Of a DNA stretch of 64,000 bases, positions 46,060-62,531 are shown piece after piece; position 1 is the first letter of the stretch; every line of letters begins with the position of its first letter. A program made the position numbers and the translations under genes. Under the pieces are notes generated by a model that saw nothing but the letters and a program-made list of their open reading frames with translations, had not been told where the DNA came from and searched no databases. The stretch is from a virus. Its lineage: Duplodnaviria; Heunggongvirae; Uroviricota; Caudoviricetes. The DNA is taken from the IMG/VR virus record IMGVR_UViG_2897328257_000003; one strand, written 5' to 3'.

Positions 46060-47804
46060 AACTGGCACCGAACGTAAAAAAACAGCCACGCGGAATAAAA
46101 CACAAAGACACAGAGGTGATTATTTTCGCGGGTAGTGATGCGTGGGCACATGCAAAACAGTGGCAGGAGCAGGACGGCCCCGCATCCGGCGATAATGTGC
46201 CTCCTGTGTGGCTTGGGCCAAATCAGCTTGCCGAACTTGATGCACTGCAAATTGTTCCTGATGGAAAAAAACGCGTAAGGCTGTACCAGGCAGGAGAACT
46301 GGACTTGGTGGAGACCAAAAAGATTGGTCAGAAGCTGGCGGCGGCAGATATTCAGGACACAAATTTTTACCCCGAAGGAATGCACGCCCAGAAGTGTGAA
46401 AACTGGCGGCGCTATCTGAATGCTGAGCGTGAAAATATTGCCGCAGGGCTTACCATGCCGGAGCAGAAAAATACGCAACTGGCACAAATGGCAGACAGTG
46501 AGCGCGCCCAGCTGCTTGCTGGTCGATTTGATGGCGTTTGCGTACATCCTGAAAGTGAAATCGTTCACGTATGGCGCGGCGGGGTATGGTGTCCGGTCAG
46601 CACAATGGAACTTAGCCGCGAAATGGTGGCGATCTATTCAGAGCACAGGGCCACTTTCAGCAAGCGCGTAATCAATAACGCCGTGGAAGCGTTAAAAGTT
46701 ATTGCCGAACCAATGGGCGAGCCGTCTGGCGATTTGCTGCCGTTCGCCAATGGTGCGCTTGACCTGAAAACAGGGGAATTTTCCCCGCACACGCCGGAGA
46801 ACTGGATCACCACGCACAACGGCATTGAGTACACGCCACCAGCACCAGGGGAGAACATCCGCGATAACGCGCCAAACTTTCATAAATGGCTTGAGCACGC
46901 AGCCGGAAAAGACCCGCGCAAGATGATGCGTATATGTGCCGCGCTGTACATGATTATGGCGAACCGGTACGACTGGCAGATGTTTATTGAGGCCACCGGA
47001 GACGGCGGGAGCGGTAAAAGTACATTCACACACATAGCCAGCCTTCTGGCAGGGAAACAGAACACGGTAAGCGCTGAAATGACATCGCTTGATGATGCTG
47101 GTGGACGTGCGCAGGTTGTCGGGAGTCGTCTTATCGTCCTGGCTGACCAGCCGAAATATACAGGCGAAGGAACGGGCATCAAGAAAATCACAGGCGGCGA
47201 CCCCGTGGAAATTAACCCGAAATATGAAAAGCGTTTCACGGCGGTAATCAGGGCGGTGGTGCTGGCGACCAACAACAACCCGATGATATTCACCGAACGG
47301 GCCGGAGGTGTGGCACGTCGTCGCGTGATTTTCCGTTTCGACAATATCGTCAGTGAGGCCGAAAAAGACAGGGAGCTACCGGAAAAGATTGCGGCTGAAA
47401 TCCCCGTTATTATCCGCCGATTGCTGGCGAACTTTACCGACCCTGAGAAGGCACGGGCTTTACTACTGGAACAGCGTGACGGTGATGAAGCACTGGCAAT
47501 AAAGCAACAGACGGATCCGGTTATTGAGTTTTGCCAGTTCCTGAATTTTCTGGAGGAAGCGCGCGGCCTGATGATGGGTGGCGGTGGTGATTCAGTGAAG
47601 TACACGACCAGGAACAGCCTTTACCGCGTCTATCTGGCGTTTATGGCATACGCGGGCAGGAGCAAACCGCTAAACGTGGCTGAGTTCAGCAAGGCCATGA
47701 AGCCAGCGGCGAAAGTTTACGGGCATGAATATATTACGCGAAAAGTTAAGGGAGTAACGCAGACCAACGCAATTACAACAGACGATTGCGACGCGTTTTT
47801 ATAA
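46056..47804 (+). CDS. P4-family phage/plasmid primase / replication initiator with P-loop NTPase domain
   Basis: 582 aa; Walker A FIEATGDGGSGKST; N-terminal region (VIIFAGSDAWAHAKQWQEQDG) shared with island-2 primase, central region divergent. Confidence 0.85.
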   Translation: MKLAPNVKKQPRGIKHKDTEVIIFAGSDAWAHAKQWQEQDGPASGDNVPPVWLGPNQLAELDALQIVPDGKKRVRLYQAGELDLVETKKIGQKLAAADIQDTNFYPEGMHAQKCENWRRYLNAERENIAAGLTMPEQKNTQLAQMADSERAQLLAGRFDGVCVHPESEIVHVWRGGVWCPVSTMELSREMVAIYSEHRATFSKRVINNAVEALKVIAEPMGEPSGDLLPFANGALDLKTGEFSPHTPENWITTHNGIEYTPPAPGENIRDNAPNFHKWLEHAAGKDPRKMMRICAALYMIMANRYDWQMFIEATGDGGSGKSTFTHIASLLAGKQNTVSAEMTSLDDAGGRAQVVGSRLIVLADQPKYTGEGTGIKKITGGDPVEINPKYEKRFTAVIRAVVLATNNNPMIFTERAGGVARRRVIFRFDNIVSEAEKDRELPEKIAAEIPVIIRRLLANFTDPEKARALLLEQRDGDEALAIKQQTDPVIEFCQFLNFLEEARGLMMGGGGDSVKYTTRNSLYRVYLAFMAYAGRSKPLNVAEFSKAMKPAAKVYGHEYITRKVKGVTQTNAITTDDCDAFL

Positions 47805-48075
47805 TTTTTTGTAAAAGCCATCTACCCCATCTACCTGAACGAAATAAACGCATATTATTCAACATGATAAGTGGGTATAGGGCTAGGTAGAAGGCTAATA
47901 AAAGCTCTCTACCTCTTCTACCTGATTTTATCAGTTTCAGGTAGCAGGGTAGACGGCAGGTAGAGGAGTCAAAAAAGCTATCTACCCGCTGAAAGCGGCG
48001 CCATTACTGACATGATGAGCATTCGGGTAGATGGGTAGAGGGGGGGGAGGCACAACTAAAAACTTTTTAAACGAG
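47805..48075. repeat. Iteron array, putative island-1 replication origin
   Basis: At least 10 copies of TCTACC/GGTAGA-type motifs in both orientations (catctaccccatctacc, ggtagaagg, ctctacctcttctacc, caggtagcagggtagacggcaggtagagg, cgggtagatgggtagagg) directly after the primase gene. Confidence 0.65.
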
Positions 48076-48090
48076 GGGGGGTGAAAATAA

Positions 48091-48405
48091 ATGCGCATAC
48101 ATAAAAATCACTTAACAAACATGCCAGCCGAATACATGAATCAGGGGCGACAAATGACCCAAAAACGCAGAGACAGAACAGAGCCAAAATATAAAGCGTT
48201 AGACATGACTGAGCACACCTTAAAGGTGGCAATCAGAACGATAGACCGCCACACGCGGGAAGGATACGCGAAGGAACATCCCGACCTGATAAGCGCATTC
48301 ATGACCACGGCGGCGGCAAACTTTGCCACGCTGACAGAACGGGAGATTGCCGAAGCGGAACAGGTAACAACCATCAACGTTAAAACCGGAGAGGTGGAAT
48401 TATGA
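48091..48405 (+). CDS. Hypothetical protein conserved in both islands (upstream of ssb)
   Basis: C-terminal two-thirds nearly identical to island-2 ORF 59484-59729 (EGYAKEHPDLISAFMTTAAANFATLTEREIAEAEQVTTINVKTGE); SD gaggggggg. Confidence 0.55.
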   Translation: MRIHKNHLTNMPAEYMNQGRQMTQKRRDRTEPKYKALDMTEHTLKVAIRTIDRHTREGYAKEHPDLISAFMTTAAANFATLTEREIAEAEQVTTINVKTGEVEL

Positions 48406-48812
48406 CGGCACAGATAGCCGCTTACGGGCGGCTGGTGGACGACCCGCTGGTAAAACAGAGCAGCAAGGGCACACCGATGACTCTGGCGCGTATGGCGGTA
48501 TCGTTGCCATGCAGCCAGGCACATGACGGACAGGCGACGTTATGGTTATCGGTTATCGCATTTGGCAAACAGGCCGATTTCCTGGCTAAACATCAAAAAG
48601 GCGATGTTGCCAGCGTATCCGGCACGATGCAGGTAAGCCAGTGGACCGGACAGAACGGGGAAACACGGCAGGGGTATCAGGTTATTGCGGACAGCGTAAT
48701 CAGTGCCCGCGCGGCACGTCCTGGCGGGAACAGACGCAAAGCCACAGGCACACAGGGTAATCAGCCACCAGCGGGAGGTGATGACCCTTACGGTGATGAT
48801 ATTCCGTTCTGA
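48402..48812 (+). CDS. ssb: Single-stranded DNA-binding protein (SSB-like OB fold with C-terminal DDIPF tail)
   Basis: 136 aa; OB-fold pattern (GRLVDDP...W..V.AFGKQADFLAKH.KGD.V.V.G.....W....G) and the hallmark acidic C-terminus ...GDDIPF, as in E. coli SSB (DDDIPF). Confidence 0.75.
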   Translation: MTAQIAAYGRLVDDPLVKQSSKGTPMTLARMAVSLPCSQAHDGQATLWLSVIAFGKQADFLAKHQKGDVASVSGTMQVSQWTGQNGETRQGYQVIADSVISARAARPGGNRRKATGTQGNQPPAGGDDPYGDDIPF

Positions 48813-48822
48813 GGGGGTGACG

Positions 48823-49095
48823 ATGGCACATGACCGCATAGCGGAGGAACTCGAGGCAAAAGGCTTTTACCGGAGGGCGGCGGCGCGATGGGGTGAAGTC
48901 ATGCAACTGGTGGAGACAGACAAGGAACGGCATCAGGTTACGATGCGACGGCTGGAATGTTCCAGGAAGGCACAGAGGCCACCGGAGCCGCCGGATAACT
49001 TCGGAGACCTGAGAAAGGCAGTCGATCGCACTTATGCTGAAATGGGTATGGATGGTGTAAGCGATGAAATATGGCGTAATTACACAGACAGCTAA
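48823..49095 (+). CDS. PerC/Pch-family-like transcriptional regulator (putative)
   Basis: 90 aa from the ATG after SD gagggggtga; motif AEELEAKGFYRRAAARWGEVM resembles the conserved core of PerC-family activators. Recalled family signature, not searched. Confidence 0.5.
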   Translation: MAHDRIAEELEAKGFYRRAAARWGEVMQLVETDKERHQVTMRRLECSRKAQRPPEPPDNFGDLRKAVDRTYAEMGMDGVSDEIWRNYTDS

Positions 49096-49100
49096 TCAAC

Positions 49101-49125
49101 AGCCGGAGCAATCCGGCTTTTTGTT
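49101..49125 (+). terminator. Rho-independent terminator (agccggagcaatccggc + T-run)
   Basis: 6-bp GC-rich stem gccgga/tccggc, 4-nt loop, then TTTTT; the same hairpin recurs at 60418 and 62332. Confidence 0.6.
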
Positions 49126-49344
49126 ATTTTTTGTAAATTATTTGTTCGTGGTTGTTCCACGTTGTTCACTGAGCGGATCGGCATATTTTACCCGAACTGA
49201 ATCATGATTATTCTCGCCCGTGGTGCCAGGACGCTGGGGCCACTTTCCCGCCTGTTAATGTGCCCGCCAATATTCATTACCAGGCGGGAAAACGATCGGT
49301 GCGATTGCTGATTTCCTTATGAAAAACGGTTGAGTGTTTGCCGC

Positions 49345-49382
49345 GTCCTGGAGTTCCTTACTTAACCCCAGGACTTTTTTTT
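49345..49382 (+). terminator. Hairpin plus T8 tract abutting the capsid gene start (terminator/attenuator-like)
   Basis: gtcctgg-N15-ccaggac followed by tttttttt then ATG (49383); no SD for the capsid gene; half-site gttgagtgttt at 49329-49341 resembles the island control palindrome. Confidence 0.4.
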
Positions 49383-50540
49383 ATGCAGAGAATAATCGAA
49401 TTACGCCAGCAGAAAACCGCCATTAAAAATCAGATGCGTGACATGCTGGAGAACGCGGAAAAAGAAAACCGCAGTCTTAACGATGCTGAGGGCGCAAAAT
49501 TTGACGAATTACGCGCTAAAGCTGAATCCCTCGATAAAGACATTTCCCGCCTTGAAGCCATTGCAGACGAAGAGCGCAGCAAGCCAGCTAAAAGCAGTCA
49601 GACCACTGACCCCGCAGAACTACGCAACTACATTCTGACAGGTGAAACCCGCGCATTAAGTACAGGCGTTCCCGCTGATGGTGGTTATACCGTTATCCCC
49701 GAGCTGAACACCGAAATCATGCGAATGCTGGCGGATGAATCCACCATGCGCCGCATCTGTACCGTGAAGAAAATCAGCAGCAACGAGTTTAAGCAGCTTG
49801 TTTCCGCTGGCGGTGCGACCGTTAACCACGGTGAAGAGGCTAAGGCACGCGAACAGACCAGCACCCCGCAGATTAACGAGGTGAGCATTAAGCTGTATCC
49901 GGTCTATGCGTACCCGCGCACCACACAGGAAATCGTGGATTTTTCCGATGTGGACATCCTTTCATGGCTGACGGGCGAGATTGGCGACACCTTCACGGAA
50001 ACCGAAGAAAGCGATCTGGTTGTGGGCGACGGTGACAAAAAAGCAAAAGGTTTTTTATCCGTACCCCGTGCAGAGAAGAACGACAAAGAGCGTGATTTTG
50101 GTACGTTGCAGGTAATTAAACCTTCCGAATCTCTGGCGTGGACATCTGCGGACCCGCTGATCGACCTGAAATTTGCATTACGTAAAAAATACCGCAAAAA
50201 CGCGGTCTGGGTGGTTAACTCCACGACGGCGGCAAAACTTCAGAAGGTGAAGAACGCGAACGGTGATTACATCTGGCGCGACCGTTTACAGGCGGGTGAT
50301 CCTGATACGTTGCTGGGCCTTCCGGTCGAATATCTGGAGTTTATGCCTGATAACGTTATTGCCCTGGGTGACTTCAAACGCGGTTACTACATTGTTGATC
50401 ACGAAACAGGTGTTCGCACCAGACCGGACAACCTCACAGAGCCGGGTTTCATCAAAATTTTCACGCAGAAATATTTAGGCGGTGGCGTGGTGGATTCGAA
50501 CGCGATCAAGATTCTGGAACTGCCACAGGACGACGATTAA
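49383..50540 (+). CDS. Major capsid protein, HK97 family
   Basis: About 385 aa; N-terminal coiled-coil delta-like region (ELRQQKTAIKNQMRDMLENAEKE...LDKDISRLEA) followed by typical HK97-fold MCP body; start refined from the six-frame ORF at 49338. Confidence 0.88.
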   Translation: MQRIIELRQQKTAIKNQMRDMLENAEKENRSLNDAEGAKFDELRAKAESLDKDISRLEAIADEERSKPAKSSQTTDPAELRNYILTGETRALSTGVPADGGYTVIPELNTEIMRMLADESTMRRICTVKKISSNEFKQLVSAGGATVNHGEEAKAREQTSTPQINEVSIKLYPVYAYPRTTQEIVDFSDVDILSWLTGEIGDTFTETEESDLVVGDGDKKAKGFLSVPRAEKNDKERDFGTLQVIKPSESLAWTSADPLIDLKFALRKKYRKNAVWVVNSTTAAKLQKVKNANGDYIWRDRLQAGDPDTLLGLPVEYLEFMPDNVIALGDFKRGYYIVDHETGVRTRPDNLTEPGFIKIFTQKYLGGGVVDSNAIKILELPQDDD

Positions 50541-50594
50541 CAGCATACAGAAGGGGCTTAAAAGCCCCTTTAGTGTTTTATGGGTGAAAAATTT

Positions 50595-51152
50595 ATGAAG
50601 AGTATGGAAATCCGGTCATCGGAAATCACTACCAGCGGCAGCAACACGCTTACAGGCTACGTTGTTCGCTGGGATAAGCTTTCAGAACTGTTATGGGGTG
50701 AGTTTTACGAAAAATTCCAGCGGGGGGCGTTTACTGAATGGCTTGCGGCGGGTAATGACGTTCGCGGCCTGTATGAGCATGACCACAGTATGTTACTGGG
50801 GCGCACCCGTTCCGGCACGCTGAAACTGGAAGAGGATGAAACAGGGTTACGCTTTGAACTGACCCCACCGGATACCAGTACAGGGCGCGACGTTATCGAA
50901 CTGGTTAAACGTGGTGATATATCCGGCATGAGCTTTGGCTTTCGCTCCCGTAAGGATGTATGGGATACCACAACAGATCCATGCGTGCGCACCGTGCTGG
51001 TGGCGGAACTGTACGAAATTACCGTTACATCGGTACCGGCTTACCCCGATTCCGGCGTGGAGCTGGCCCGCCGTTCCCTGTATGAGCAGCACCCCGAAAA
51101 AATGCCGCGTGCGGATAATCGCCGCTGGTGGGTGGATTTAGCGGGGGTGTGA
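50595..51152 (+). CDS. Prohead maturation protease, HK97 family
   Basis: About 185 aa; pattern GYVVRWD...F.E.F..GAF......DVRGL.EHD...LLGRT.SGTL.LEED..GL.FEL.PPDT..GRDV.ELV.RGD.SGMSFGF matches prohead proteases. Confidence 0.85.
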   Translation: MKSMEIRSSEITTSGSNTLTGYVVRWDKLSELLWGEFYEKFQRGAFTEWLAAGNDVRGLYEHDHSMLLGRTRSGTLKLEEDETGLRFELTPPDTSTGRDVIELVKRGDISGMSFGFRSRKDVWDTTTDPCVRTVLVAELYEITVTSVPAYPDSGVELARRSLYEQHPEKMPRADNRRWWVDLAGV

Positions 51153-51153
51153 T

Positions 51154-52365
51154 ATGTGGCCTTTCAGAAGAAAAAAAGAGCAGCGCAGCATGACGCTTGA
51201 TGAATTTATGGCGCTGGCTGGCACATCGAACACGGGGGCGGGTGAGTACGTATCATCGGGGACAGCGGAATCACTGCCTGCCGTCATGAACGCCGTTACG
51301 GTCATCTCTGAGGCGGTGGCTACTATGCCATGCTACCTGTACCTGGTACGCAATGAGAAGGGGAAGGAGGCCCGCGAGTGGCTTGATTCTCATCCGGTCG
51401 ATCACATCCTCAACGAGCGCCCGAACGCATGGCAAACCCCCTACCAGTTTAAGCGAATGATGATCCGCCACTGCCTGTTAAACGGTAATGCTTATGCGGT
51501 TATTCAGTGGGGGCGTGATGGTTTTCCGGCGGCTTTACATCCTTACCCGCCGCAGTCGGTGAACGTGGAGCAGACAGGCGAACACAACTGGCGCTATTGC
51601 ATCACTGACGCCTACACCGGAAACACCCACAACTATTTACCGTGGGAAGTACTTCACCTTCGTTACTCCACGGATGACGGCTTTATGGGGCGCTCACCTG
51701 TAACCATCTGCCGCGAATCGCTGGGGCTTGGGCTGGCCCAACAACGCCACGGCGCGAGCGTGATGCGTGATGGCATGATGGCGGCAGGGGTTATCACGTC
51801 AGGCGAATGGCTGGACGGCGTGAAGGGCAAACAGGCATTAGCCGCACTGGAACGCTACAAAGGGGCCAGAAACGCCGGAAAAACGCCCATCCTTGAAGGG
51901 GGGATGAGCTATCAGCAGCTGGGCATGAGTAATCAGGATGCTGAATGGCTGGCCTCCCGTCGCTTTACCATTGAAGACATCGCCCGAATGTTCAACGTCT
52001 CGCCGATTTTTTTGCAGGAATACAGCAACAGCACCTACAGCAATTTCAGCGAGGCAAGCCGCGCATTTCTCACCATGACGATGCGCCCGTGGCTGGCGAA
52101 CTTTGAGCAGCAGATAAAAAACGCCCTGCTGGTGGCCTCGCCTGTACCTGGTATCCGGTATCAGGTGGAGTTTGACAGCGCGGACCTGTTACGGGCCACA
52201 CCTGGCGAACGCTTTGCCACCTATGAGCGCGGCATCAAATCCGGCGTTATGTGCCCGAACGAAGCCCGCGAACGTGAAGGACTGTCACCGCGTGATGGTG
52301 GTGATGAGTTCAGTCAGGCATGGAAACAGGAAGTAAAAATCAGCGAGGGAGAAAAACCGGAATGA
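51154..52365 (+). CDS. Portal protein, HK97 family
   Basis: 403 aa, SD gcgggggtg; size and sequence character of HK97-type portals; directly follows the protease. Confidence 0.88.
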   Translation: MWPFRRKKEQRSMTLDEFMALAGTSNTGAGEYVSSGTAESLPAVMNAVTVISEAVATMPCYLYLVRNEKGKEAREWLDSHPVDHILNERPNAWQTPYQFKRMMIRHCLLNGNAYAVIQWGRDGFPAALHPYPPQSVNVEQTGEHNWRYCITDAYTGNTHNYLPWEVLHLRYSTDDGFMGRSPVTICRESLGLGLAQQRHGASVMRDGMMAAGVITSGEWLDGVKGKQALAALERYKGARNAGKTPILEGGMSYQQLGMSNQDAEWLASRRFTIEDIARMFNVSPIFLQEYSNSTYSNFSEASRAFLTMTMRPWLANFEQQIKNALLVASPVPGIRYQVEFDSADLLRATPGERFATYERGIKSGVMCPNEAREREGLSPRDGGDEFSQAWKQEVKISEGEKPE

Positions 52366-52700
52366 ACATAGGGCGACTGCGTGACAGGATAACGATTCAG
52401 ACCCTGAAACAGACCAGAGCCATGACGGGCGAAATACTCGAAACGTGGGAGGACGGTCACACACTCTGGGCAAGCGTGAACATGATCAGCAGCAAGGAGG
52501 CCATTTCATCGGGCGCAGAGCTGGCGATTGGTACCGTAAGGATCTGGATACGGTACCGGAAGGACATCAACGCCACCAGCCGGATAAAGGTCAGTACGGG
52601 GCCGCTGGCGGGGCGTGTACTGAATATCATCGGGCAGCCGTTGCCGGATGTCGCCAGGACACGCCTTGAAATTCTTTGTCGTGAGGGCGCGGAAAAATGA
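52362..52700 (+). CDS. Head-tail adaptor / head closure protein
   Basis: 112 aa starting MNIGRLRDRITIQ (typical GRLR.R.TIQ head-tail joining motif); ATGA overlap with portal stop. Confidence 0.7.
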   Translation: MNIGRLRDRITIQTLKQTRAMTGEILETWEDGHTLWASVNMISSKEAISSGAELAIGTVRIWIRYRKDINATSRIKVSTGPLAGRVLNIIGQPLPDVARTRLEILCREGAEK

Positions 52701-52993
52701 CAGAAGAACTTATCACCCTGGAAGAAGTGAAACTCCATTGCCGTATCGATGGAGACGAGGAAGACCAGTTAATCAGCGGATACATTGCCGCATCGCTTGA
52801 GGCGTGCCAGATACACATAGGCAGGCGCTTTGATGACGGGCTGGAGTTCACGCCAGCCATAAAGATTGGCTGCATGATGTTTATCGCTCACCTGTATGAG
52901 AATCGCCAGATTGTCGCGGATAACGCAAAAACACGCGTACCCATGACGATTGGCGCACTCTGGACGGCTTACCGTGATGTGGGGGTGTACTGA
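52697..52993 (+). CDS. Head-tail connector protein (gp6-like)
   Basis: 98 aa, LEEVKLHCRIDGDEEDQLI... typical of gp6-like connectors; overlapping starts/stops with neighbours. Confidence 0.7.
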   Translation: MTEELITLEEVKLHCRIDGDEEDQLISGYIAASLEACQIHIGRRFDDGLEFTPAIKIGCMMFIAHLYENRQIVADNAKTRVPMTIGALWTAYRDVGVY

Positions 52994-53433
52994 TGCCGTG
53001 GCAACCATTAAGACGATGCACAGAACCAGGCTGTAACAGGCGCGTTAAATCCGGCAAGTGTGAGGAGCACAGGCGGGCGGCATGGCGTGCAGAGGATGCC
53101 AGACGAGGACACCGCCGCGCGCGTGGATATTCCAGACAGTGGGACAAATACCGCGCCATGTATCTGAGTAAAAACCCGTTATGCGTGCGATGCCTTGAGA
53201 AGGGGATATATACGCCCGCCGTGGTGGTGGATCACATTATCCCGATTAATGGCGGTGATGATGTTCTCTTCTGGCCCGAATGGAACCATCAACCATTGTG
53301 CCAGGCGTGTCATAACCAGAAAACGAAATGGCTTGATCCGGCAACAAAAAGCAAGCGTGCCGCAGGTGGATTTCGTGAAGAGGAAGAACGGGCCGCTAAC
53401 CGCAATAACTGGATGTATGACGCTGATGAATGA
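52993..53433 (+). CDS. HNH endonuclease (terminase-associated)
   Basis: 146 aa; Cys pairs and HNH core (VVDHIIPINGGDD...NHQPLCQACHNQKTKW); immediately upstream of TerS/TerL as in HNH-dependent cos packaging modules. Confidence 0.85.
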   Translation: MPWQPLRRCTEPGCNRRVKSGKCEEHRRAAWRAEDARRGHRRARGYSRQWDKYRAMYLSKNPLCVRCLEKGIYTPAVVVDHIIPINGGDDVLFWPEWNHQPLCQACHNQKTKWLDPATKSKRAAGGFREEEERAANRNNWMYDADE

Positions 53434-53722
53434 GCGGGAACAAAACCGCCTTATCCGTGGACTTATAAGGCAGCGTGACGCATGGAAGACACAGGAAACA
53501 GGGCATAAAGATAAAGCGTCAGGACGCGCAGAACGCATCACAGCGAAGCGATTAACCGACCGTGACCGCGAGGTTATGGAATGTTTCCGCAATCGCTGAT
53601 GAGGCTGTATGACGGGGTGGGGGGCGTTTTCAGGACAAACCCGACCCCGCCGGGCACCGAACGCCTCCTCAAATTTTTATGCACGGGAATTTTTTGAAAA
53701 ATAATCTGGCGAAAAAATAAGC

Positions 53723-54079
53723 ATGGCAAGACCACCGAAAGCCCCCGCCTACCTGGATGACATCGCCGTGAAGCAGTGGCGGGAAAAATCGCGGCAGCTT
53801 GCGGAACGGGGAGACCTGACCCCCGCCGACTGGAGCAATCTGGAACTGTATTGCGTCAACTACTCCATTTACCGGAAAGCCGTTGCAGACCTTGCGGCGC
53901 GCGGGTTCAGCATTGTTAACAGTCAGGGCGGCGAGAGCAGAAACCCCGCATTAAGCGCAAAATCCGACGCTGAAAGAGTGATGATAAAAATGGCCTCCTT
54001 GCTCGGTTTTGACCCGATAAGCCGCCGTAAAAATCCACCGGAAACAGAAGAAGAGGACGAGCTTGACCGCCTGGAATAA
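53723..54079 (+). CDS. Terminase small subunit, P27 family
   Basis: 118 aa; pattern ...W.E..RQL.ERGDLT.AD...LELYCVNYSIYRKA...L...G..........NPA........M.KMAS.LGFDP.SRRK matches P27-family TerS. Confidence 0.8.
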   Translation: MARPPKAPAYLDDIAVKQWREKSRQLAERGDLTPADWSNLELYCVNYSIYRKAVADLAARGFSIVNSQGGESRNPALSAKSDAERVMIKMASLLGFDPISRRKNPPETEEEDELDRLE

Positions 54080-55724
54080 GTACGCAGAAGACGTAAAAAC
54101 GGGCAAAATTCCGGCCTGTAAACGGCTGAAACAGGCCGTTAAACGGTACTTTTCGGACCTTGAAAGCCCCCTTTACACGTTCGATCGTGAGGTTGTGGAG
54201 CGGTTTATTGCCTTTTCCAGGGTGTGCCCGCACGTAAAAGGGCCGATGCGTGGCAGACCCATTGAGCTGGAGCCGTGGCAGCAGTTCGCCTTTGCGTGCA
54301 TCCTCGGCTTTAAGGTTAAGGCCACCGGACGGCGCAAATACACGAGCGCCTTTATCGAAGTGCCGCGCAAAAATGCGAAATCCACGACCGCCGCGATTCT
54401 GGCTAACTGGTTTCTGATTATGGAGAACGGGCAGCAGGATATTTACACCGCAGCGGTGAGCCGTGACCAGGCGCGGATCGTTTTTGATGATGCGCGTCAG
54501 ATGTGCCTTTTATCCCGACCGTTACGCAGGCGGGTGAATATTCAGGCCCACAAGGTGATGCACCCGAAAAGCAACAGCCTGTTAAAGCCGCTGGCAGCAA
54601 AAGCGGCAACCATCGAGGGCACAAACCCAAGCCTTTCCATCGTGGACGAATACCACCTACACCCCGATAACGGCGTTTATTCCGCGCTTGAGCTGGGGAT
54701 GGGCGCACGTCCCGAAGGGCTGTTATTTGCCATTACCACATCGGGCAGTAACGTCGTTTCAGCCTGTAAGCAGCACTATGATTATTGCTGCCAGATCCTG
54801 GACGGCGAAGAGGTCAACGATTCAATTTTTGTGCTGATTTACGAGCTGGACGACGAAAACGAGGTTGATGATCCGGCGATGTGGATAAAGGCTAACCCTA
54901 ACATCGATGTTTCCGTGGATCGTGAAAAACTGGCCTCAACCATCCAGAAAGCGCGGGGTATTCCGTCGCAATGGGTGGAGATGATGACAAAGCGATTTAA
55001 TATCTGGTGCCAGGGGGCTACCCCGTGGATGGGTAACGGCGCATGGGCTGAGTGTGCCGGAACGTTCACGGAGGAAGATTTACTCGGGCAGGAGTGTTAC
55101 GCGGGGCTGGACTTATCATCAACCAGCGATATTTCCAGCGTGTGCTATGCCTTTCCGGTCGGTAAAAATATCATGCTGGTTTCCCGTCATTATCTGCCGG
55201 AGTTCCAGCTACAGAACCCCGCCAATAAAAACCGCGCTGTCTATCGCCAGTGGGCTAAAGCGGGCTGGATACGCACAACGCCAGGTGACTGCATTGATTA
55301 CGACCGGATCAGAGATGACATCATGCAGGATGCGGAGAAATTTAATATCAGGCTGGTGGGCTTTGATACGTGGAACGCCACGCATCTCAGGACGCAATTA
55401 CAGGGGGCAGGCTTTGAGGTGGAGCCGTTCCCGCAAACCTACCTCAGATTCAGTCCGGCGGCGAAATCGTTCGAAGTTTTTGTTAACCGCAGGGTGATTG
55501 TGCATCGTGGCGATCCGGTGTTGTCCTGGTCGATGAGTAACGTCGTGATGCAGAGTGACGCGAACGCCAATATCAAGCCGAACAAGAAAAAATCACCGAA
55601 CAAGATAGACCCGAGCGTGGCGGCGCTGATGGCGTTTGGTACATTCCAGGCAGAGCATGAGGATTTTGCTTTTGATATAAGCGACAGCCACCGCCAGAAA
55701 CTGGAAGAATTTAGCGGGGTGTAA
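54063..55724 (+). CDS. Terminase large subunit
   Basis: 553 aa; ATPase region (FIEVPRKNAKSTTAA) and nuclease-domain character; overlaps TerS stop. Confidence 0.88.
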   Translation: MTAWNKYAEDVKTGKIPACKRLKQAVKRYFSDLESPLYTFDREVVERFIAFSRVCPHVKGPMRGRPIELEPWQQFAFACILGFKVKATGRRKYTSAFIEVPRKNAKSTTAAILANWFLIMENGQQDIYTAAVSRDQARIVFDDARQMCLLSRPLRRRVNIQAHKVMHPKSNSLLKPLAAKAATIEGTNPSLSIVDEYHLHPDNGVYSALELGMGARPEGLLFAITTSGSNVVSACKQHYDYCCQILDGEEVNDSIFVLIYELDDENEVDDPAMWIKANPNIDVSVDREKLASTIQKARGIPSQWVEMMTKRFNIWCQGATPWMGNGAWAECAGTFTEEDLLGQECYAGLDLSSTSDISSVCYAFPVGKNIMLVSRHYLPEFQLQNPANKNRAVYRQWAKAGWIRTTPGDCIDYDRIRDDIMQDAEKFNIRLVGFDTWNATHLRTQLQGAGFEVEPFPQTYLRFSPAAKSFEVFVNRRVIVHRGDPVLSWSMSNVVMQSDANANIKPNKKKSPNKIDPSVAALMAFGTFQAEHEDFAFDISDSHRQKLEEFSGV

Positions 55725-55737
55725 TGAGGTCAGCAGC

Positions 55738-56019
55738 ATGACAGAAGCCGAAATACTGCGATTAATCCGCCGCGTCTCTGGAATCAGCCAGCAGGCTGAC
55801 GAACAGACCACGCAGCCGGACAGCGTGACAGCCGAAAATTATGCGCGTGTTGTTGCTGAGGTGATGCGCCGTGATGGTATCCAGCTTAATGATGCGGATA
55901 TGCGCGACATACGGATCCGCGTTCTGGAAATGCTGGCCTACAATCGCCGCGTTGAACTGTATCGGGAGAAGGAGAAAATCACGTACCACTGGAAGAAGCC
56001 GGAGCGGTTACGGCGGTAA
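55738..56019 (+). CDS. Conserved hypothetical 93-aa protein at the right end of both islands
   Basis: Close homolog at 63330-63611 (MTEAE.LRLIRRV.GISQQ.DEQ.TQPDSVTAENYARVVAEVMRRDGI.LN..DMR.IR.RVLE.LAY.RRVE.YREKEKITYHWKKPERLRR). Confidence 0.6.
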   Translation: MTEAEILRLIRRVSGISQQADEQTTQPDSVTAENYARVVAEVMRRDGIQLNDADMRDIRIRVLEMLAYNRRVELYREKEKITYHWKKPERLRR

Positions 56020-56433
56020 CTTGTTGATTAAAAGGCGGCTCAATTCTGAGCTGGGTAGCTGACGGCGGTAACTGTTTTATATTCCCGATAGCGCAAAAAT
56101 GCGCGGTCGGGCAGAATGACCACCACCTCAATCGTGACGGAGAGTGACAACCAGTGACACACCGTGACAAAAAGACGGTTTAACCGTTCATTAAAAATCG
56201 ACGTGATTTTGTGCTATCAGGATGACGTGGCCAACGTCATTTTTTAGCGAAAAATTCTGATTAAGGTCACTGGCTGAATGGTCATAATGACCACGCAGAC
56301 CATCGAGGCAACCATAGCGATCATCGTTACGGTTGGAGCTTTTCCGCCATTGGTGGAAAAGGTGCACATCTGGATCATCATTACGGTGATCAAGGGTATG
56401 TAAAACCCACCAGCCTGATTAAATGTTAACCGG
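56020..56433. repeat. Island-1 right-end non-coding region with repeated motifs (cggcggtaact x2, GTGACA repeats, palindrome tggtcataatgacca); probable attR/arm-site region
   Basis: Motifs partly shared with the island-2 right end (63612-63820); contains a 38-codon hydrophobic ORF at 56287-56403. Confidence 0.4.
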
Positions 56434-56444
56434 NNNNNNNNNNN
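56434..56444. other. Assembly gap (11 N) between islands
   Basis: Run of n; sequence resumes at the same conserved motif that follows the 623-N gap in island 1. Confidence 0.99.
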
Positions 56445-56559
56445 TGATTATACTGGAATCCAGTTGAGTGTTTATCACTCAATGCAAACGAGGCTGAAAA
56501 GGATTGCCGTCCTTTCGCAGCCTCTGACCACCAACGATAGCGAAAGTATCGAGGTAGCT
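56445..56559 (+). promoter_or_regulatory. Conserved control region (copy 2) with palindrome TTGAGTG-N5-CACTCAA (56464-56482)
   Basis: Near-identical to 44836-44952. Confidence 0.5.
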
Positions 56560-56763
56560 ATGAGAAATCATATCACACACCCGCAAGGGCGGGACTCGCA
56601 CAACCTGAATAAATTCACCTGGCGTTTTATCGCCCTGAGCACGGCACAACCGCGCGTGATTACCATTGAGGCCACCAGCGAACAGGAAGCACGCCTGCAA
56701 TCCCCGGCTGGCTGCGTGATGGTATTCGCTGCCCGTATTCGTCAGGGGGGGTGCCATGCCTGA
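56560..56763 (+). CDS. Hypothetical small protein (homolog of 44953-45153)
   Basis: Same SD and start context; N-terminus conserved, C-terminus divergent. Confidence 0.5.
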   Translation: MRNHITHPQGRDSHNLNKFTWRFIALSTAQPRVITIEATSEQEARLQSPAGCVMVFAARIRQGGCHA

Positions 56764-57076
56764 CATGACCAATTACCAGTACCTGATTAATCCGCATTTT
56801 AACTGTGAGCATGATATTGCTAAAAAGGTTTATTCCGCTGCGGATGGGGCTACTGACAATATATCAATGGCTGTTTCGTCAATTGGTAGCCTGATGTGGT
56901 ATGCGTCAGAAAATGAGGAATATGACGAAAAGGCCATGCGCATTGACATGGGGAATATTGGCTTGTTACTGGCAATGCTTGGGCAGTTTGATATTTCGTT
57001 ACGGTGCACCATTGAAAATGCCACAGATGCATTAAATGCCATAAAGAAAGCGAATACTGATTCAAATCGGGGATAA
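56756..57076 (+). CDS. Hypothetical protein (106 aa), island-2-specific variable-slot gene
   Basis: Six-frame ORF in the same slot as island-1 ORFs 45146-45754 but unrelated in sequence. Confidence 0.45.
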   Translation: MPDMTNYQYLINPHFNCEHDIAKKVYSAADGATDNISMAVSSIGSLMWYASENEEYDEKAMRIDMGNIGLLLAMLGQFDISLRCTIENATDALNAIKKANTDSNRG

Positions 57077-57082
57077 ATAATC

Positions 57083-57382
57083 ATGAGAACATATTTATCT
57101 GGCTTGACTGCCAGCGGTTATGCACACCCCAAAATTATCCCCGGCGCTATTTATCTGGATAAGAACGGTAACAGAGTAACGGTAAAAGAACTGATGTTTG
57201 ACCGTGTGTATTTTATCCGTGATGGCTATTCATTTCTTAGTTCGCTGAACGTGGAGATCTTTATTAGCAGATTCAGGCGGGAAATCCCGCTTTCCAGAAA
57301 TAACCATGTGTCATGTATGGATGTTGATAAAAAACTACAGGAACTAAAAAACATGATTGCCGCGTGGAGAGAGCAGAAATGA
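57083..57382 (+). CDS. Hypothetical protein with GLTASG motif (99 aa)
   Basis: Counterpart of 45760-46059; stop overlaps primase start. Confidence 0.5.
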   Translation: MRTYLSGLTASGYAHPKIIPGAIYLDKNGNRVTVKELMFDRVYFIRDGYSFLSSLNVEIFISRFRREIPLSRNNHVSCMDVDKKLQELKNMIAAWREQK

Positions 57383-59196
57383 AAAAAGCGCCAAATTTAA
57401 AACACCAGCCACGTGACAAAATGATGGAAGTCATCATTTTTGCGGGTAGTGATGCGTGGGCACATGCGAAGCAATGGCAGGAACAGGACGGGCGACTGGC
57501 TGGCGACAGCGTGCCTCCTGTCTGGCTTGGAGAGCAACAACTTGCCGAACTGGACAACCTGCAAATCGTACCGGACGGACGCTATCGCGTGCGTCTCTAT
57601 CAGGCGGGGTTATTGCGTCCGGGGCTTGTTAATACCATCGGGCAGAAACTGGCAGCGGCAGGTGTCAGGGATGCTGATTATTACCCTGAAGGAATGCACA
57701 GCCAGAAACGGGAGAACTGGCGCGAATATCTGGAACGTGAACGGGCAGAGCAGGCGGAAAAGAAAAAGGTAGTTGAACTGCCTGTAAAGAAAAAAGAGCG
57801 GGTAAAAGACGATAACGCTTCATCACTGGCGCTTAACCAGATGGGAGCAAGTCAACGCGGCGAAGTTCTCCTGGCACATTATGGCGGTGAACTGGCGATT
57901 CATGCTGACTCTGACACTGTTCACTATTACAACGGCGTTGTATGGGAGCCAGTACAGGATAAAGAATTACAGCGAGCTATGGCACAGATTTTCATTGATG
58001 CGGAGATCAGCTATTCGCAGAACGCCATTAAATCGGCGGTCGATACCATGAAGTTAAGTTTGCCTGTAATGGGGAATACAGCCCGTAACCTGATTGGATT
58101 CAGTAACGGTGTTTTTGATACCCGGACAGGCGATTTTCGGGAGCATAACAAAAACGACTGGTTGTTAATTGCCAGTGAATTACCTTTCAGCCCACCAGCA
58201 GAGGGGGAAACGCTGGCAACACATGCGCCGAATTTCTGGAAGTGGTTACGCCGTTCGGTGGCTGAGAATGACCGCAAGGCGGATCGCGTACTGGCTGCAT
58301 TATTCATGGTGCTGGCGAACCGGTACGACTGGCAGTTATTCATTGAGGTAACAGGTCCAGGGGGAAGTGGTAAAAGCGTGATGGCGGAGATTTGCACCAT
58401 GCTGGCGGGTAAGGCCAACACGGTATCGGCAAGCATGAAGGCGCTGGAAGATGCCAGGGAACGCGCGTTAGTGGTTGGCTTTTCGCTGATTATCATGCCG
58501 GATATGACCCGTTACGCTGGTGATGGCGCAGGAATTAAGGCCATTACAGGCGGTGACAAGGTGGCAATCGACCCGAAGCATAAAGCCCCCTACTCAACAC
58601 GCATTCAGGCGGTAGTGTTGGCGGTGAACAATAACGCCATGTCATTCAGTGACCGCAGCGGGGGGATTTCACGTCGTCGGGTGATATTCAATTTTTCGGA
58701 GGTTGTACCGGAAAACGAACGCGACCCCATGCTGGCAGAAAAAATAGAAGGAGAGCTGGCGGTTGTGATTCGCCACCTGCTTACTCGTTTTTCTGACCAG
58801 GACGAAGCTAAACGCCTGCTGTATGAGCAGCAGAAATCAGAAGAAGCTCTGGTGATAAAACGCGAGGGCGATTCGCTGGTGGACTTCTGCGGCTATCTCA
58901 TGTCGTCGGTAATGTGTGATGGTCTGTTAGTGGGTAATGCCGAAATTATTCCGTTCAGTCCGCGCAGGTATCTTTATCACGCCTATCTGGCATATATGAG
59001 GGCACACGGATTCGGTAAACCTGTAACACTGACGCGCTTCGGTAAAGATATGCCGGGGGCAATGGCGGAATATGGCAGGGAGTATATGAAACGGAAAACG
59101 AAGCACGGTTTGCGTTCAAATGTGACCCTGACAGAGGATTCAGAAGACTGGATGCCATCATGTGCATCGGTCACAAATGACGATGGAAAAAATTAA
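57379..59196 (+). CDS. P4-family phage/plasmid primase / replication initiator (island-2 allele)
   Basis: About 605 aa; Walker A FIEVTGPGGSGKSV; N-terminus and C-terminal domain related to island-1 primase, middle divergent; start refined to MKKAPNLK; six-frame ORF starts at 57364. Confidence 0.85.
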   Translation: MKKAPNLKHQPRDKMMEVIIFAGSDAWAHAKQWQEQDGRLAGDSVPPVWLGEQQLAELDNLQIVPDGRYRVRLYQAGLLRPGLVNTIGQKLAAAGVRDADYYPEGMHSQKRENWREYLERERAEQAEKKKVVELPVKKKERVKDDNASSLALNQMGASQRGEVLLAHYGGELAIHADSDTVHYYNGVVWEPVQDKELQRAMAQIFIDAEISYSQNAIKSAVDTMKLSLPVMGNTARNLIGFSNGVFDTRTGDFREHNKNDWLLIASELPFSPPAEGETLATHAPNFWKWLRRSVAENDRKADRVLAALFMVLANRYDWQLFIEVTGPGGSGKSVMAEICTMLAGKANTVSASMKALEDARERALVVGFSLIIMPDMTRYAGDGAGIKAITGGDKVAIDPKHKAPYSTRIQAVVLAVNNNAMSFSDRSGGISRRRVIFNFSEVVPENERDPMLAEKIEGELAVVIRHLLTRFSDQDEAKRLLYEQQKSEEALVIKREGDSLVDFCGYLMSSVMCDGLLVGNAEIIPFSPRRYLYHAYLAYMRAHGFGKPVTLTRFGKDMPGAMAEYGREYMKRKTKHGLRSNVTLTEDSEDWMPSCASVTNDDGKN

Positions 59197-59460
59197 ACTT
59201 ATGGAATAACTGTTCACCACTGTTCAGCCTGCAATAAATGTCTTTTATATCAGTATATTATAGGGTGAACAGTTATTTATGAACTGTTCACCAAACTATT
59301 CACTGTTCACCTTTTTGATTCTTTATTGAGCTTTAAGGGTGAACAGTGGTGAACAGTTGGTGAATAGTTTTTGTGAAACTGTTCACCCCTTAACATCATG
59401 AATAAAAAGGGAAAATTGCAAAAGGTGAACAGGTGAAGGGTTGAAATGCAAAAATTTTAT
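59197..59460. repeat. Iteron array, putative island-2 replication origin (GTGAACAG-type)
   Basis: At least 10 copies of TGTTCACC/GGTGAACAG in both orientations (aactgttcaccactgttcag, gggtgaacagtt, gaactgttcaccaaactattcactgttcacc, gggtgaacagtggtgaacagttggtgaatag, ggtgaacaggtgaagg) right after the primase gene. Confidence 0.65.
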
Positions 59461-59483
59461 TTTATTGCTGTGAGGTAAAGCCT

Positions 59484-59729
59484 GTGACAACGAAGCACGC
59501 CAAAAAACCACAATCTCACGCCCTTGATTTGACAGAACACTGGCTGAGGGTGGCGATAAAAATCATCGACCGCAACGCCGGGGAAGGATACGCGAAGGAA
59601 CATCCCGACCTGATAAGCGCATTCATGACCACAGCAGCGGCAAACTTTGCCACGCTGACAGAACGGGAGATTGCCGAAGCGGAACAGGTAACAACCATCA
59701 ACGTTAAAACCGGAGAGGGGGCAGTATGA
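59484..59729 (+). CDS. Hypothetical protein conserved in both islands (homolog of 48091-48405)
   Basis: GTG start with SD gaggt; C-terminal region near-identical to island-1 copy. Confidence 0.55.
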   Translation: MTTKHAKKPQSHALDLTEHWLRVAIKIIDRNAGEGYAKEHPDLISAFMTTAAANFATLTEREIAEAEQVTTINVKTGEGAV

Positions 59730-60136
59730 CGGCACAGATAGCCGCTTACGGGCGGCTGGTGGACGACCCGCAGGTAAAACAGACCAGCAAGGGCACACCA
59801 ATGACGCTGGCTCGTATGGCGGTATCGCTGCCATGCAGCCAGGCACAGGACGGACAGGCGACGTTATGGCTGTCGGTCATCGCATTTGGCAAACAGTCCG
59901 ACTTCCTGGCTAAACATCAAAAAGGCGACGTTGCCAGCGTATCCGGCACGATGCAGGTAAGCCAGTGGACCGGACAGAACGGGGAGACGCGTCAGGGTTA
60001 TCAGGTTATTGCAGACAGCGTAATCAGTGCCCGTGCGGCACGTCCTGGCGGGAACAGACGCAAAACCACAGGCGCACAGGGTAATCAGCCACCAGCGGGA
60101 GACGATGATCCCTACGGTGATGATATTCCGTTCTGA
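59726..60136 (+). CDS. ssb: Single-stranded DNA-binding protein (SSB-like, C-terminal DDIPF)
   Basis: Near-identical to island-1 SSB; ends ...AGDDDPYGDDIPF. Confidence 0.75.
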   Translation: MTAQIAAYGRLVDDPQVKQTSKGTPMTLARMAVSLPCSQAQDGQATLWLSVIAFGKQSDFLAKHQKGDVASVSGTMQVSQWTGQNGETRQGYQVIADSVISARAARPGGNRRKTTGAQGNQPPAGDDDPYGDDIPF

Positions 60137-60146
60137 GGGGGTGACG

Positions 60147-60395
60147 ATGGTACATGACCGCATAGCGGAAGAACTCGAAGCGAAAGGATTTTACCGGAGG
60201 GCGGCGGCGCGATGGGGTGAAGTCATGATGCTGGTGGAGACAGACAAGGAACGGCATCACATCACGATGCGACGGCTGGAATGTTCCAGGAAGGCACAGA
60301 GGCCACCGGAGCCGCCAACGGAGAACTATGCAGACCTGAGAAATGCAGTAAATCGCACTTACGCAGACATGGGGCTGAGCAAATTAGCAGAGTAG
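60147..60395 (+). CDS. PerC/Pch-family-like transcriptional regulator (putative)
   Basis: 82 aa; AEELEAKGFYRRAAARWGEVM core shared with island-1 copy. Confidence 0.5.
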   Translation: MVHDRIAEELEAKGFYRRAAARWGEVMMLVETDKERHHITMRRLECSRKAQRPPEPPTENYADLRNAVNRTYADMGLSKLAE

Positions 60396-60416
60396 GAATA
60401 CCAGAACCACACCACA

Positions 60417-60490
60417 CAGCCGGAGCAATCCGGCTTTTTTGCGCCCAAAAAAAGCCCGATAAGGTCAGAGGTGGCTTATCGGGCTTTTGC
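60417..60490 (+). terminator. Tandem rho-independent terminators
   Basis: agccggagcaatccggc + T6, then aagcccgataag-N11-cttatcgggctt + TTTT (12-bp stem). Confidence 0.65.
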
Positions 60491-60649
60491 ATATGAGGCT
60501 TTTTGGTGCACTGACACACATGATCGGGATAATCATTTCATAATTTGCAACACAACTCAATATCATTGCACAAAATGCAATCATGATTATAATCATAACT
60601 GGATGAACATACAGTTGTGGTTTTTTAAGTCAAAGAGGAATTTCTTACT

Positions 60650-60856
60650 ATGGCTGAAGAGAAAAAAGGCGGTGTTTCGGTGTACATAAGCCCCGACATC
60701 GTGAAGGCGCTCAAGGAACGCCACCAGCAGAACGTAAAAGCAGGCATTGCGGCAGGACTTGATCCGCTGGCGATGGTTGAGCCGTCAACAGGCTGGCAGG
60801 TACGCGCCTATTTACGCGCGGCGCTGGGTATGAATCAGGTTCACGGGGGTGAATAA
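60650..60856 (+). CDS. Hypothetical 68-aa protein upstream of the gpE-like capsid gene
   Basis: SD aaagagg; stop overlaps the capsid gene start; no recognisable family. Confidence 0.45.
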   Translation: MAEEKKGGVSVYISPDIVKALKERHQQNVKAGIAAGLDPLAMVEPSTGWQVRAYLRAALGMNQVHGGE

Positions 60857-61911
60857 TGACAGGTAAAGCAACAGCACTTACCACTAATCAGCTTTTCACG
60901 TACCTGAATCGCGGGGATATTGCGGAATTTAAATTCAGTCCGCTGTTTACGACGCTGTTTTTCCCGAACGTGGCGACATTCAGCACCCAAAACATCATGC
61001 TGGATACCCTGGACATTGAAGAAGTCACCATGTCGGCGTTTTGTTCGCCTATGGTTGGCAGCCAGGTACAGCGCGATAAAGGGTACGAAACCAGCACAAT
61101 TAAACCTGGCTACATGAAGCCAAAGCACGAAATCGATCCAACGAAAACCATCATGCGCATGGCTGGAGAAGATCCAGCACAGCTTAACGACCCTACCTAC
61201 CGACGTATGCGCCTGATTACTGGCAACATGCGCCGCCAGGTAAACGCCATTAAAGCGCGCGTGGAATGGCTGGCGGTGAATGCGATAACGACCGGAAAAA
61301 ACATTATTGAGGGCGAAGGCATAGAACGCTATGAAATAGACTGGAAAATACCGGAAAACTGCATCATAGAGCAGGCCAAGGGTAAAAAATGGTCCGAGCA
61401 GGATAAAGAGATGCACGACCCAATCTATGACATCGAGCTTTATGCTGATCAGGCTGGTTGCCCCGCAAACGTCATGATTATGGGCGCTGAGGTATGGCGC
61501 ACGCTACGCAGCTTTAAAAAATTCCGTGAGCTGTACGATCTTTCCCGTGGTTCAGAATCCGCCGCAGAACTGGCCTGTAAAAACCTGGGCGAAGTGGTGA
61601 GCTTTAAAGGCTATCTGGGCGATATTGCCCTTATCGTCTATTCCGGCAAATACGCTGACAGCGACGGCACCGAAAAATATTTCCTTGAGCCTGATTTACT
61701 GGTCCTGGGTAACACCAACAATAAAGGCCTGGTGGCCTATGGTGCGATTATGGATCAGGAAGCGGTAAGAACGGGCGCAACGCAAAACATGTACTACCCG
61801 AAAAACTGGATTGAGGACGGCGATCCGGCGATTGAGTACGTGCAGACACACAGCGCACCGCAGCCGGTACCGGCAGATATTCGCAAATTTGTTACCGTCA
61901 AAATTGGTTAA
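60856..61911 (+). CDS. Major capsid protein, lambda gpE-like
   Basis: 351 aa; colinear similarity to lambda gpE as remembered (island KFSPLFTTLFF / PGYMKPKHEI / YPKNWIEDGDPA versus lambda KFDPLFLRLFF / PGYVKPKHEV / YPKNWVTTGDPA). Confidence 0.85.
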   Translation: MTGKATALTTNQLFTYLNRGDIAEFKFSPLFTTLFFPNVATFSTQNIMLDTLDIEEVTMSAFCSPMVGSQVQRDKGYETSTIKPGYMKPKHEIDPTKTIMRMAGEDPAQLNDPTYRRMRLITGNMRRQVNAIKARVEWLAVNAITTGKNIIEGEGIERYEIDWKIPENCIIEQAKGKKWSEQDKEMHDPIYDIELYADQAGCPANVMIMGAEVWRTLRSFKKFRELYDLSRGSESAAELACKNLGEVVSFKGYLGDIALIVYSGKYADSDGTEKYFLEPDLLVLGNTNNKGLVAYGAIMDQEAVRTGATQNMYYPKNWIEDGDPAIEYVQTHSAPQPVPADIRKFVTVKIG

Positions 61912-61922
61912 CGGGGGATTCT

Positions 61923-62258: not shown

Positions 62259-62330
62259 GCAGGGGGAACGATGGCAGAACCCCGGGCGATGACGGCGACA
62301 TCGATCGCATACTGAAAACCATCTGAGACA

Positions 62331-62355
62331 GGCCGGAGAAATCCGGCTTTTTTTA
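62331..62355 (+). terminator. Rho-independent terminator (ggccggagaaatccggc + T7) just before cos
   Basis: Third copy of the gccgga/tccggc hairpin, followed by ttttttt. Confidence 0.6.
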
Positions 62356-62356
62356 C

Positions 62357-62430: not shown

Positions 62431-62531
62431 GTTTGTGGTGGTGGTTTTGTTGTTCGCTCTATCTCTATGAATAAAAAGGGAAAGATAAAACCAACACACC
62501 AACCTGAAACCTTAACTAAGTGGGTATATTG

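Follow-up and report, generated by a model that had tools for sequence, protein, structure and literature searches.

A capsid-forming phage-inducible chromosomal island, very probably an allele of EcCIEDL933, between roxA and phoQ in a gapped Escherichia coli scaffold

A block of phage head and packaging genes standing between two chromosomal genes raises the question of whether it is what remains of a phage that has lost its tail, or part of a satellite that builds its own capsid and takes its tails from other phages. Such a block is found at positions 49383-55724 of the stretch analysed here (IMG/VR virus record IMGVR_UViG_2897328257_000003; 64,000 nucleotides, referred to as the window), in an island flanked by roxA and phoQ. 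A preliminary description, made from the letters alone, had assigned this island to the phage-inducible chromosomal islands that are capsid-forming (cf-PICIs), which need only the tails of a helper phage. The present analysis supports this assignment with high confidence: the island is very probably a cf-PICI and an allele of the prototype EcCIEDL933, placed at the roxA-phoQ site. It is a member of an already described family and not a new one.

The cf-PICI family was defined on EcCIEDL933, an element of ~15.4 kb carrying int, alpA, rep and the genes for capsid, protease, portal, connectors, HNH endonuclease, small terminase (TerS) and large terminase (TerL), and no tail genes (Alqurainy et al. 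2022/2023). It was demonstrated that mutating any of its packaging genes abolished transfer, that transfer was unaffected by head mutants of the helper and lost with tape-measure or major-tail mutants of the helper HK106, and that induction was mediated by alpA, as revealed with an alpA mutant (Alqurainy et al.). That it produces its own small capsids and packages its own DNA exclusively was shown by mutagenesis, Southern blots, electron microscopy (EM) and cryo-EM. A common order is seen in the proteobacterial cf-PICIs, with capsid-protease-portal-connectors before hnh-terS-terL (Alqurainy et al.), and the adaptor and the connector set the tail specificity (He et al. 2025).

The open reading frames (ORFs) of the island were searched against the Pfam and PHROGs profiles; the SatelliteFinder profiles themselves were not used. 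Full-length matches were obtained for the major capsid protein (MCP), the prohead protease, the portal, two connector proteins, the HNH endonuclease, TerS and TerL, all of which had been listed as present and intact in the preliminary description (Table 1). These eight genes are co-directional on the plus strand, harbor no internal stops and cover the Pfam profiles almost completely with scores above the gathering values, and the functions given by PHROGs agree with those given by Pfam. The spacing between consecutive genes of the block ranges from -17 to +39 bp, with the sole exception of 123 bp before terS. The MCP was 98.7% identical over all 385 residues to PDB 9GYI, which corresponds to the T=4 capsid of EcCIEDL933 solved at 3.24 Å (He et al.). 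Moreover, the exact TerL protein was present in 19 contigs. Pseudogenes among the head genes, which more accurate sequencing might have exposed, are unlikely because the contig that carries these genes is identical to independent assemblies.

The genes said to be lacking were also searched for. None of the island ORFs, nor any of the four ORFs that fill the largest internal gap in related genomes, matched tail or lysis families in Pfam or PHROGs, as had been expected. The supposed absence of a repressor held in part: a repressor of the CI or Stl type was not found among the island ORFs in these searches, whereas a 98-aa ORF matched a PHROGs family labelled as transcriptional repressor and a 59-aa Arc-like ORF occurs in the gap sequence of the relatives. 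The size of less than 15 kb proposed earlier is right for the interval from int to TerL, but not for the att-to-att element, which measures 15.26 kb. Similarly, the gene order, described as permuted relative to HK97, is indeed unlike that of HK97; it is not a peculiarity of this island, but the conserved order of proteobacterial cf-PICIs.

The criteria that define a cf-PICI were taken from He et al. and SatelliteFinder. The 15.26 kb of the island fall within the range of 10-18 kb given for the family (He et al.). The core of integrase, AlpA and replication module was recognised by Phage_integrase, Phage_AlpA and D5_N/DUF5906 matches, in agreement with the int, alpA and primase genes named in the preliminary description; all eight packaging components are full length; no forbidden tail or holin/lysis component was detected with Pfam and PHROGs; and the genes at 49383-55724 follow the proteobacterial order. 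Between the packaging proteins and their EcCIEDL933 counterparts, identity amounts to 97.9-100%, in comparison with the 50-90% or more recorded in the original survey. As judged by these matches, all 11 components of the cf-PICI gene set are present in the island, arranged in the order canonical for Proteobacteria, and the proposed match to the family agreed with all published criteria that can be tested on sequence; a near-identical EcCIEDL933 occupies the same site. Classical PICIs are defined by the absence of portal, adaptor and connector, and the island carries portal, adaptor and head-closure genes. An HK97-like prophage, functional or defective, would be expected to span ~35-45 kb and to retain modules for tail, lysis and immunity, at least in fragments; no such genes or fragments were seen in the island, and only 15.26 kb lie between the att cores.

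The comparison with the prototype was direct. EcCIEDL933 is located between roxA and phoQ in the EDL933 chromosome (NZ_CP008957.1), and thus occupies the same attachment site. Its gene order is identical to that of the island, which answers the synteny check proposed earlier, and the packaging proteins are of equal length; the MCP is 98.7% identical and the DNA of the packaging module 97.6% identical over 6,930 bp. The two elements are also close in size, 15.4-15.5 kb for EcCIEDL933 versus 15.26 kb. One difference concerns replication: EcCIEDL933 encodes a 710-aa DUF927 replication protein, whereas the island encodes a 582-aa primase with D5_N and DUF5906 domains, and only the first 162 residues could be aligned, with 68.5% identity. 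Furthermore, the segment after alpA contains a 247-aa ORF in EDL933 and small minus-strand ORFs in the island (as read from the sequence of its relatives), and EDL933 has, upstream of the capsid gene, ~330 bp of additional sequence that include a 74-aa ORF, as well as a longer right arm. The swapped replication module fits the published exchange of left halves between PICIs and cf-PICIs (SatelliteFinder publication). The element is common: of the 5,426 complete genomes of E. coli, 227 contain at least 80% of it. The same architecture is not confined to one att site, with roxA-phoQ and tqsA among those that it occupies.

The boundaries of the island were established by comparison with the empty roxA-phoQ site of K-12. 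A 10-bp core, GGACATATTT, is shared by both junctions and overlaps the phoQ stop codon; the attL copy lies by roxA, and the attR copy falls beyond the window, at ~64575 by the offset of the record. The att-to-att length given above was measured in ungapped relatives that are 99.9-100% identical. The junctions thus place the integration at the 3′ end of phoQ, in the roxA-phoQ site, and a tRNA scan of the window returned no match, the island making no use of a tRNA site. A 21-bp direct repeat, CGGTGTAGTTAATGGTGTAGT, which contains GGTGTAGT as an internal doublet, is found near each end of the island, ~100-130 bp inward (41886-41906 in the window; 5493 and 20524 in the related assembly L016). This repeat was considered as the att core and rejected, as the empty K-12 site puts the junction core GGACATATTT ~100 bp further out. 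Repeats of the CGGTGTAGTTAATGGTGTAGT type are probably arm-type binding sites of the integrase and not the crossover core. A variant, CGGTGTAGTCACTGGTGTAGT, was observed at the end of the second island described below.

Regarding the left half, the genes between the integrase and the head block are mostly close to those of EcCIEDL933 (Table 1). A primase identical to the 582-aa protein was found in a classical PICI at tqsA (L015). The origin of PICIs usually sits directly after the primase gene. In the island, iteron-like repeats occupy a 349-bp gap 3′ of this gene, and this region may represent the replication origin, a putative role based on its position after the primase and on what is generally known of PICIs. 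In the right half, phages with HNH-dependent cos packaging cut beside terS, and cos is probably placed in the interval between the HNH gene and terS (53433-53723), which contains an intergenic stretch at 53600-53722. The related 16.5-kb element LR881103.1 begins 22 bp before terS, a start that may reflect the convention of the depositor or a rotation. The 93-aa ORF at the right end, also present in EcCIEDL933, is a conserved satellite gene; homologues of it close both the cf-PICI (55738-56019) and the second island (63330-63611), and these two are 88% identical in DNA.

Table 1. Features of the island and its surroundings, with positions in the 64,000-nucleotide window
Feature	Position	Strand	Match or remark
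Flanking genes potB, potA, pepT, roxA	left of island		annotation by homology
attL core GGACATATTT	41752-41761		left island boundary by roxA; 10-bp overlap at both junctions versus empty K-12 roxA-phoQ site
Tyrosine integrase, 409 aa	41933-43162	+	Pfam Arm-DNA-bind_3 and Phage_integrase; 95.8% to EcCIEDL933 int
11-N linker	43242-43252		exact 136-bp duplicate on each side (43106-43241 = 43253-43388), suffix/prefix overlap, 3′ end of integrase gene
alpA regulator, 62 aa	43684-43872	+	Pfam Phage_AlpA, E 5e-18; 98.4% to EcCIEDL933 AlpA
623-N gap	44213-44835		N also in the independently fetched record
98-aa ORF	44857-45153	+	phrog_6196 'transcriptional repressor', E 4e-39; RefSeq homologues 'host cell division inhibitor Icd-like'
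Four small conserved ORFs (61, 63 and 80 aa; 99-aa DUF4222)	45146-46059	+	PHROGs families of unknown function, Pfam DUF4222; 95-100% to EcCIEDL933
Primase/helicase-type replication protein, 582 aa	46056-47804	+	Pfam D5_N, DUF5906, Pox_D5; phrog_864 DNA primase
Iteron-like repeats CCATCTACC / GGTAGA	47809-48049	both orientations	repeat families D1-D3, many inverted pairs
83-aa ORF, SSB (136 aa), PerC-family regulator (90 aa)	48154-49095	+	Pfam SSB, PerC; 91-96% to EcCIEDL933
HK97-fold MCP, 385 aa	49383-50540	+	PF05065, E 2e-61
S78 prohead serine protease, 190 aa	50580-51152	+	PF04586, E 4e-48; 97.9% to EcCIEDL933
Portal, 403 aa	51154-52365	+	PF04860, E 2e-90; 99.5% to EcCIEDL933
Head-closure / head-completion protein, 112 aa	52362-52700	+	PF05521, E 1e-22; phrog_25; 100% to EcCIEDL933
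gp6-like head-tail adaptor, 98 aa	52697-52993	+	PF05135, E 8e-12; phrog_40; 100% to EcCIEDL933
HNH endonuclease, 146 aa	52993-53433	+	PF01844, E 2e-8; phrog_144; 99.3% to EcCIEDL933
Conserved ORF between HNH and terS, 60 aa	53417-53599	+	phrog_3173, family of unknown function; 100% to EcCIEDL933
TerS, P27 family, 118 aa	53723-54079	+	PF05119, E 1e-23; 100% to EcCIEDL933
TerL, 553 aa	54063-55724	+	TTG start as in RefSeq relatives; PF03354 and PF20441; phrog_9; 98.2% to EcCIEDL933
Conserved ORF at island right end, 93 aa	55738-56019	+	phrog_1561; 93.5% to EcCIEDL933
Non-coding right arm	56020-56433		truncated at an 11-N linker; the final 244 bp and attR follow the inserted contig, beyond the window

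The window represents an E. coli chromosome in the form of a scaffold with gaps, and the way it was assembled bears directly on how the island is read. Real sequence is restricted to 36270-64000, positions 1-36269 being entirely N, and further N runs are found at 43242-43252 (11), 44213-44835 (623) and 56434-56444 (11). The three real segments 3′ of the first 11-N linker matched GenBank CP023200.1 (GCA_002290225.1) with 100% identity. The N runs in the independently fetched CP023200.1 are identical, and the idea that they were masks added to the window was discarded. Three ungapped assemblies (L016, L017 and L018) are 100% identical to 43253-44212 and 99.9-100% identical to 44836-56433, and run unbroken from roxA through int, alpA, primase, head genes, TerL and the 93-aa ORF to phoQ. 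The duplicate of 136 bp around the first linker is single-copy in all three, and for this reason it is, together with the linker, read as a contig-overlap joining artefact and not as biology. This duplicate generates a spurious 129-aa minus-strand ORF (43106-43388).

The 623-N gap corresponds to 1,108 bp in the same three assemblies (L016 7673-8780). The four ORFs in this interval, all on the minus strand, measure 67, 59, 75 and 59 aa, and their PHROGs labels are unknown or Arc-like. The preliminary description had pointed to this gap as a place where tail or lysis genes might appear, and none are found in these 1,108 bp. In L016, positions 7576-8701 hold two similar modules on the minus strand, each consisting of a 67- or 75-aa ORF followed by a 59-aa ORF of the Arc-like / YlcI-YnfO family. 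This internal repeat of modules probably caused the assembly gap and its discrepancy in length (623 N versus 1,108 bp), and the paired ORFs might act as small regulators or as modules of a toxin-antitoxin-like kind. At the other end of the real sequence, 36270-36950 matches the end of a lambdoid prophage, 3′ of its tail-fibre genes, and a YkgJ-family gene beside potB, as in strain 2015C-3905, in which a full lambda-like tail module lies directly upstream of that prophage-end segment. Since 2015C-3905 has a lambda-like tail module at this place, a siphovirus prophage is probably concealed by the 36-kb N run, ~5 kb away from the satellite; if present, it could be a tail donor or helper for the island.

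Given an element with head genes and no tail, one alternative explanation would be a decayed HK97-like prophage, a dead remnant from which tail, lysis and immunity genes have been deleted. The head genes do belong to ordinary phage families, and a P4-type integrase beside phage genes has the look of a remnant. This explanation is nevertheless extremely improbable: all 21 island ORFs are intact and as long as their EcCIEDL933 counterparts, the 15-kb architecture is found again in the 227 complete genomes and is not restricted to a single att site, the nearest real phages reach at most 36% TerL identity, the capsid-protease-portal order is unlike that of HK97, and the near-identical EDL933 allele is experimentally mobile. 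It could also be argued that the scaffold is a chimera, in which the head contig (44836-56433) is not joined to the int-alpA piece by roxA and the integrase belongs to the second island (56445-64000), as in 2015C-3905. The join is in fact a 623-N gap, the int-alpA piece is 99.8% identical to that of a genome with an element of the second type at roxA-phoQ, and the record contains demonstrable joining artefacts. We consider this very unlikely, as primase, SSB, PerC and all head genes lie on one uninterrupted contig, so that the gap leaves most of the architecture unaffected; moreover, in the three ungapped assemblies, which show 100% identity on either side of the gap, the sequence runs without interruption from roxA via the head genes to phoQ, the phoQ-proximal 244 bp of the record are the exact continuation of the head contig, and the contig of the second island ends in tqsA-site flank. 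A further origin of the head-gene contig, from a tqsA element, was considered, given that its last 160 bp are 96.9% identical to a tqsA-site island and only 80% to phoQ-site islands. It was rejected on account of the ungapped roxA-to-phoQ relatives, which are 99.9-100% identical, and was also ruled out by the phoQ-proximal sequence of the record, which exactly continues the contig.

The deposited order itself would make the locus a composite of ~23 kb with one integrase at phoQ, in which the body of a classical PICI is nested in, or tandem to, the cf-PICI. This is the order displayed by CP023200.1, a record deposited as complete. The second island is a 7.8-kb segment starting at 56445 (to ~64320 in the record; L008 12383-20258) that encodes primase, SSB, PerC, a lambda gpE-like capsid protein (PF03864), a gpD-like decoration protein (PF02924), a Nu1-like TerS and a 93-aa ORF, but neither an int nor an alpA. 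An 11-N linker stands at each end of the segment. The head-gene contig ends at 56433, 244 bp short of attR, and after the second linker (L008 20270) the cf-PICI sequence resumes at the exact next base and proceeds through attR into phoQ; the two bases thus separated are adjacent in L016 (20378 and 20379), and the split falls inside the island and not at the att core. In addition, the last 584 bp of the segment match a tqsA-site island and its flank with 98.6% identity. A true composite of 23 kb would exceed a T=4 capsid sized for ~15.5 kb and would bring two satellite strategies into conflict over packaging, and this reading is extremely improbable. Because the segment is linker-bounded, splits adjacent bases, lacks int and alpA and has an end that matches tqsA, it is most likely, on this sequence evidence, a contig from a second satellite, located at tqsA, which was wrongly scaffolded into this locus, and not a tandem partner. 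Such scaffolding errors in CP023200.1 would mislead the automated counting of satellites, for instance by an apparent tandem of two islands.

The reading as a cf-PICI allele of EcCIEDL933 has points against it. The evidence for this allele is sequence evidence. In the record, int and alpA are connected across the 623-N gap to the contig with primase and head genes, and a foreign contig interrupts the right arm. The replication protein is unlike that of the tested prototype, so that replication competence and the response to helpers are predicted ones, and the position of cos is likewise a predicted one. Finally, the 36 kb upstream are N, so no helper phage is visible.

If the island behaves as EcCIEDL933 did in the experiments of Alqurainy et al. 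and He et al., from which the following steps are drawn, a helper phage would turn on alpA, the island would excise via its integrase and replicate from the iteron region with its own primase, and the packaging operon would then be expressed. Capsid protein, protease and portal would build a protease-matured T=4 capsid of ~47.5 nm, too small for a 40-kb phage genome; HNH, TerS and TerL would cut the cos of the island and package island DNA only, and the head-closure and adaptor proteins would complete the neck. Lysis by the helper would release filled capsids without tails, which would dock onto siphovirus tails made by a phage. In this way, the island is expected to make its own small capsids for its own DNA exclusively, and its transfer to depend on helper tails and on induction by alpA. 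The predicted tail partners are of the HK106/HK446 type and not of the HK022 type, because both neck proteins match their EcCIEDL933 counterparts with 100% identity.

The value of the locus as a discovery is small, as the family, the prototype at this locus, the capsid structure and the tail-stealing mechanism are all published and the element is common. It provides a clean positive control, showing that a cf-PICI could be recognised from raw sequence in the preliminary description. It is also a natural allele that combines the exact neck proteins of the prototype with a different replication module, and could be used to separate the specificity of replication and induction from that of the tail.

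Among known systems, the left half of the island resembles the one in classical PICIs from E. coli, of the EcCICFT073 / EcCIED1a type, with a P4-type integrase, alpA, small ORFs, DUF4222, primase, SSB and PerC. The second island belongs broadly to this kind. Classical PICIs differ in being without portal, protease, adaptor, connector, HNH and TerL and in relying on helper capsids; in SatelliteFinder, the presence of portal, adaptor and connector excludes an element from the PICI class. With HK97-like cos phages, such as the helper HK106, the island shares the protein families, the HNH-dependent cos packaging and an HK97-fold capsid matured by a protease. These phages nonetheless have a T=7 capsid, whereas that of the satellite is T=4, and present the order terS-terL-portal-protease-capsid in addition to tail, lysis and immunity modules; protein identity is low, and that of TerL is at most ~36% for true phages. 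The 'phage' records that come closer than 36% are themselves elements of 10-16.5 kb with the same gene set. One of them, the 16.5-kb record 'Escherichia phage vB_KppS-Ant' (LR881103.1), looks like a packaged cf-PICI that was deposited as a phage. The label 'tail length tape measure protein' is attached in this record to a 765-aa ORF after terL (2036-4333); as this ORF occupies the accessory slot, it is probably a cargo gene that was mis-annotated. Together with EcCIGN02175, KpCIDSM30104 and the Pasteurella elements Pmp7 and Pmp8, vB_KppS-Ant shares with the island the same 11 core components, a size of 10-18 kb and the lack of tail and lysis genes. The TerL identity to the island is 81% for vB_KppS-Ant and 69% for Pmp7/8, with ~66-70% at the DNA level. 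Other enterobacterial cf-PICIs carry different alleles of adaptor and connector, and hence have different tail partners (He et al.).

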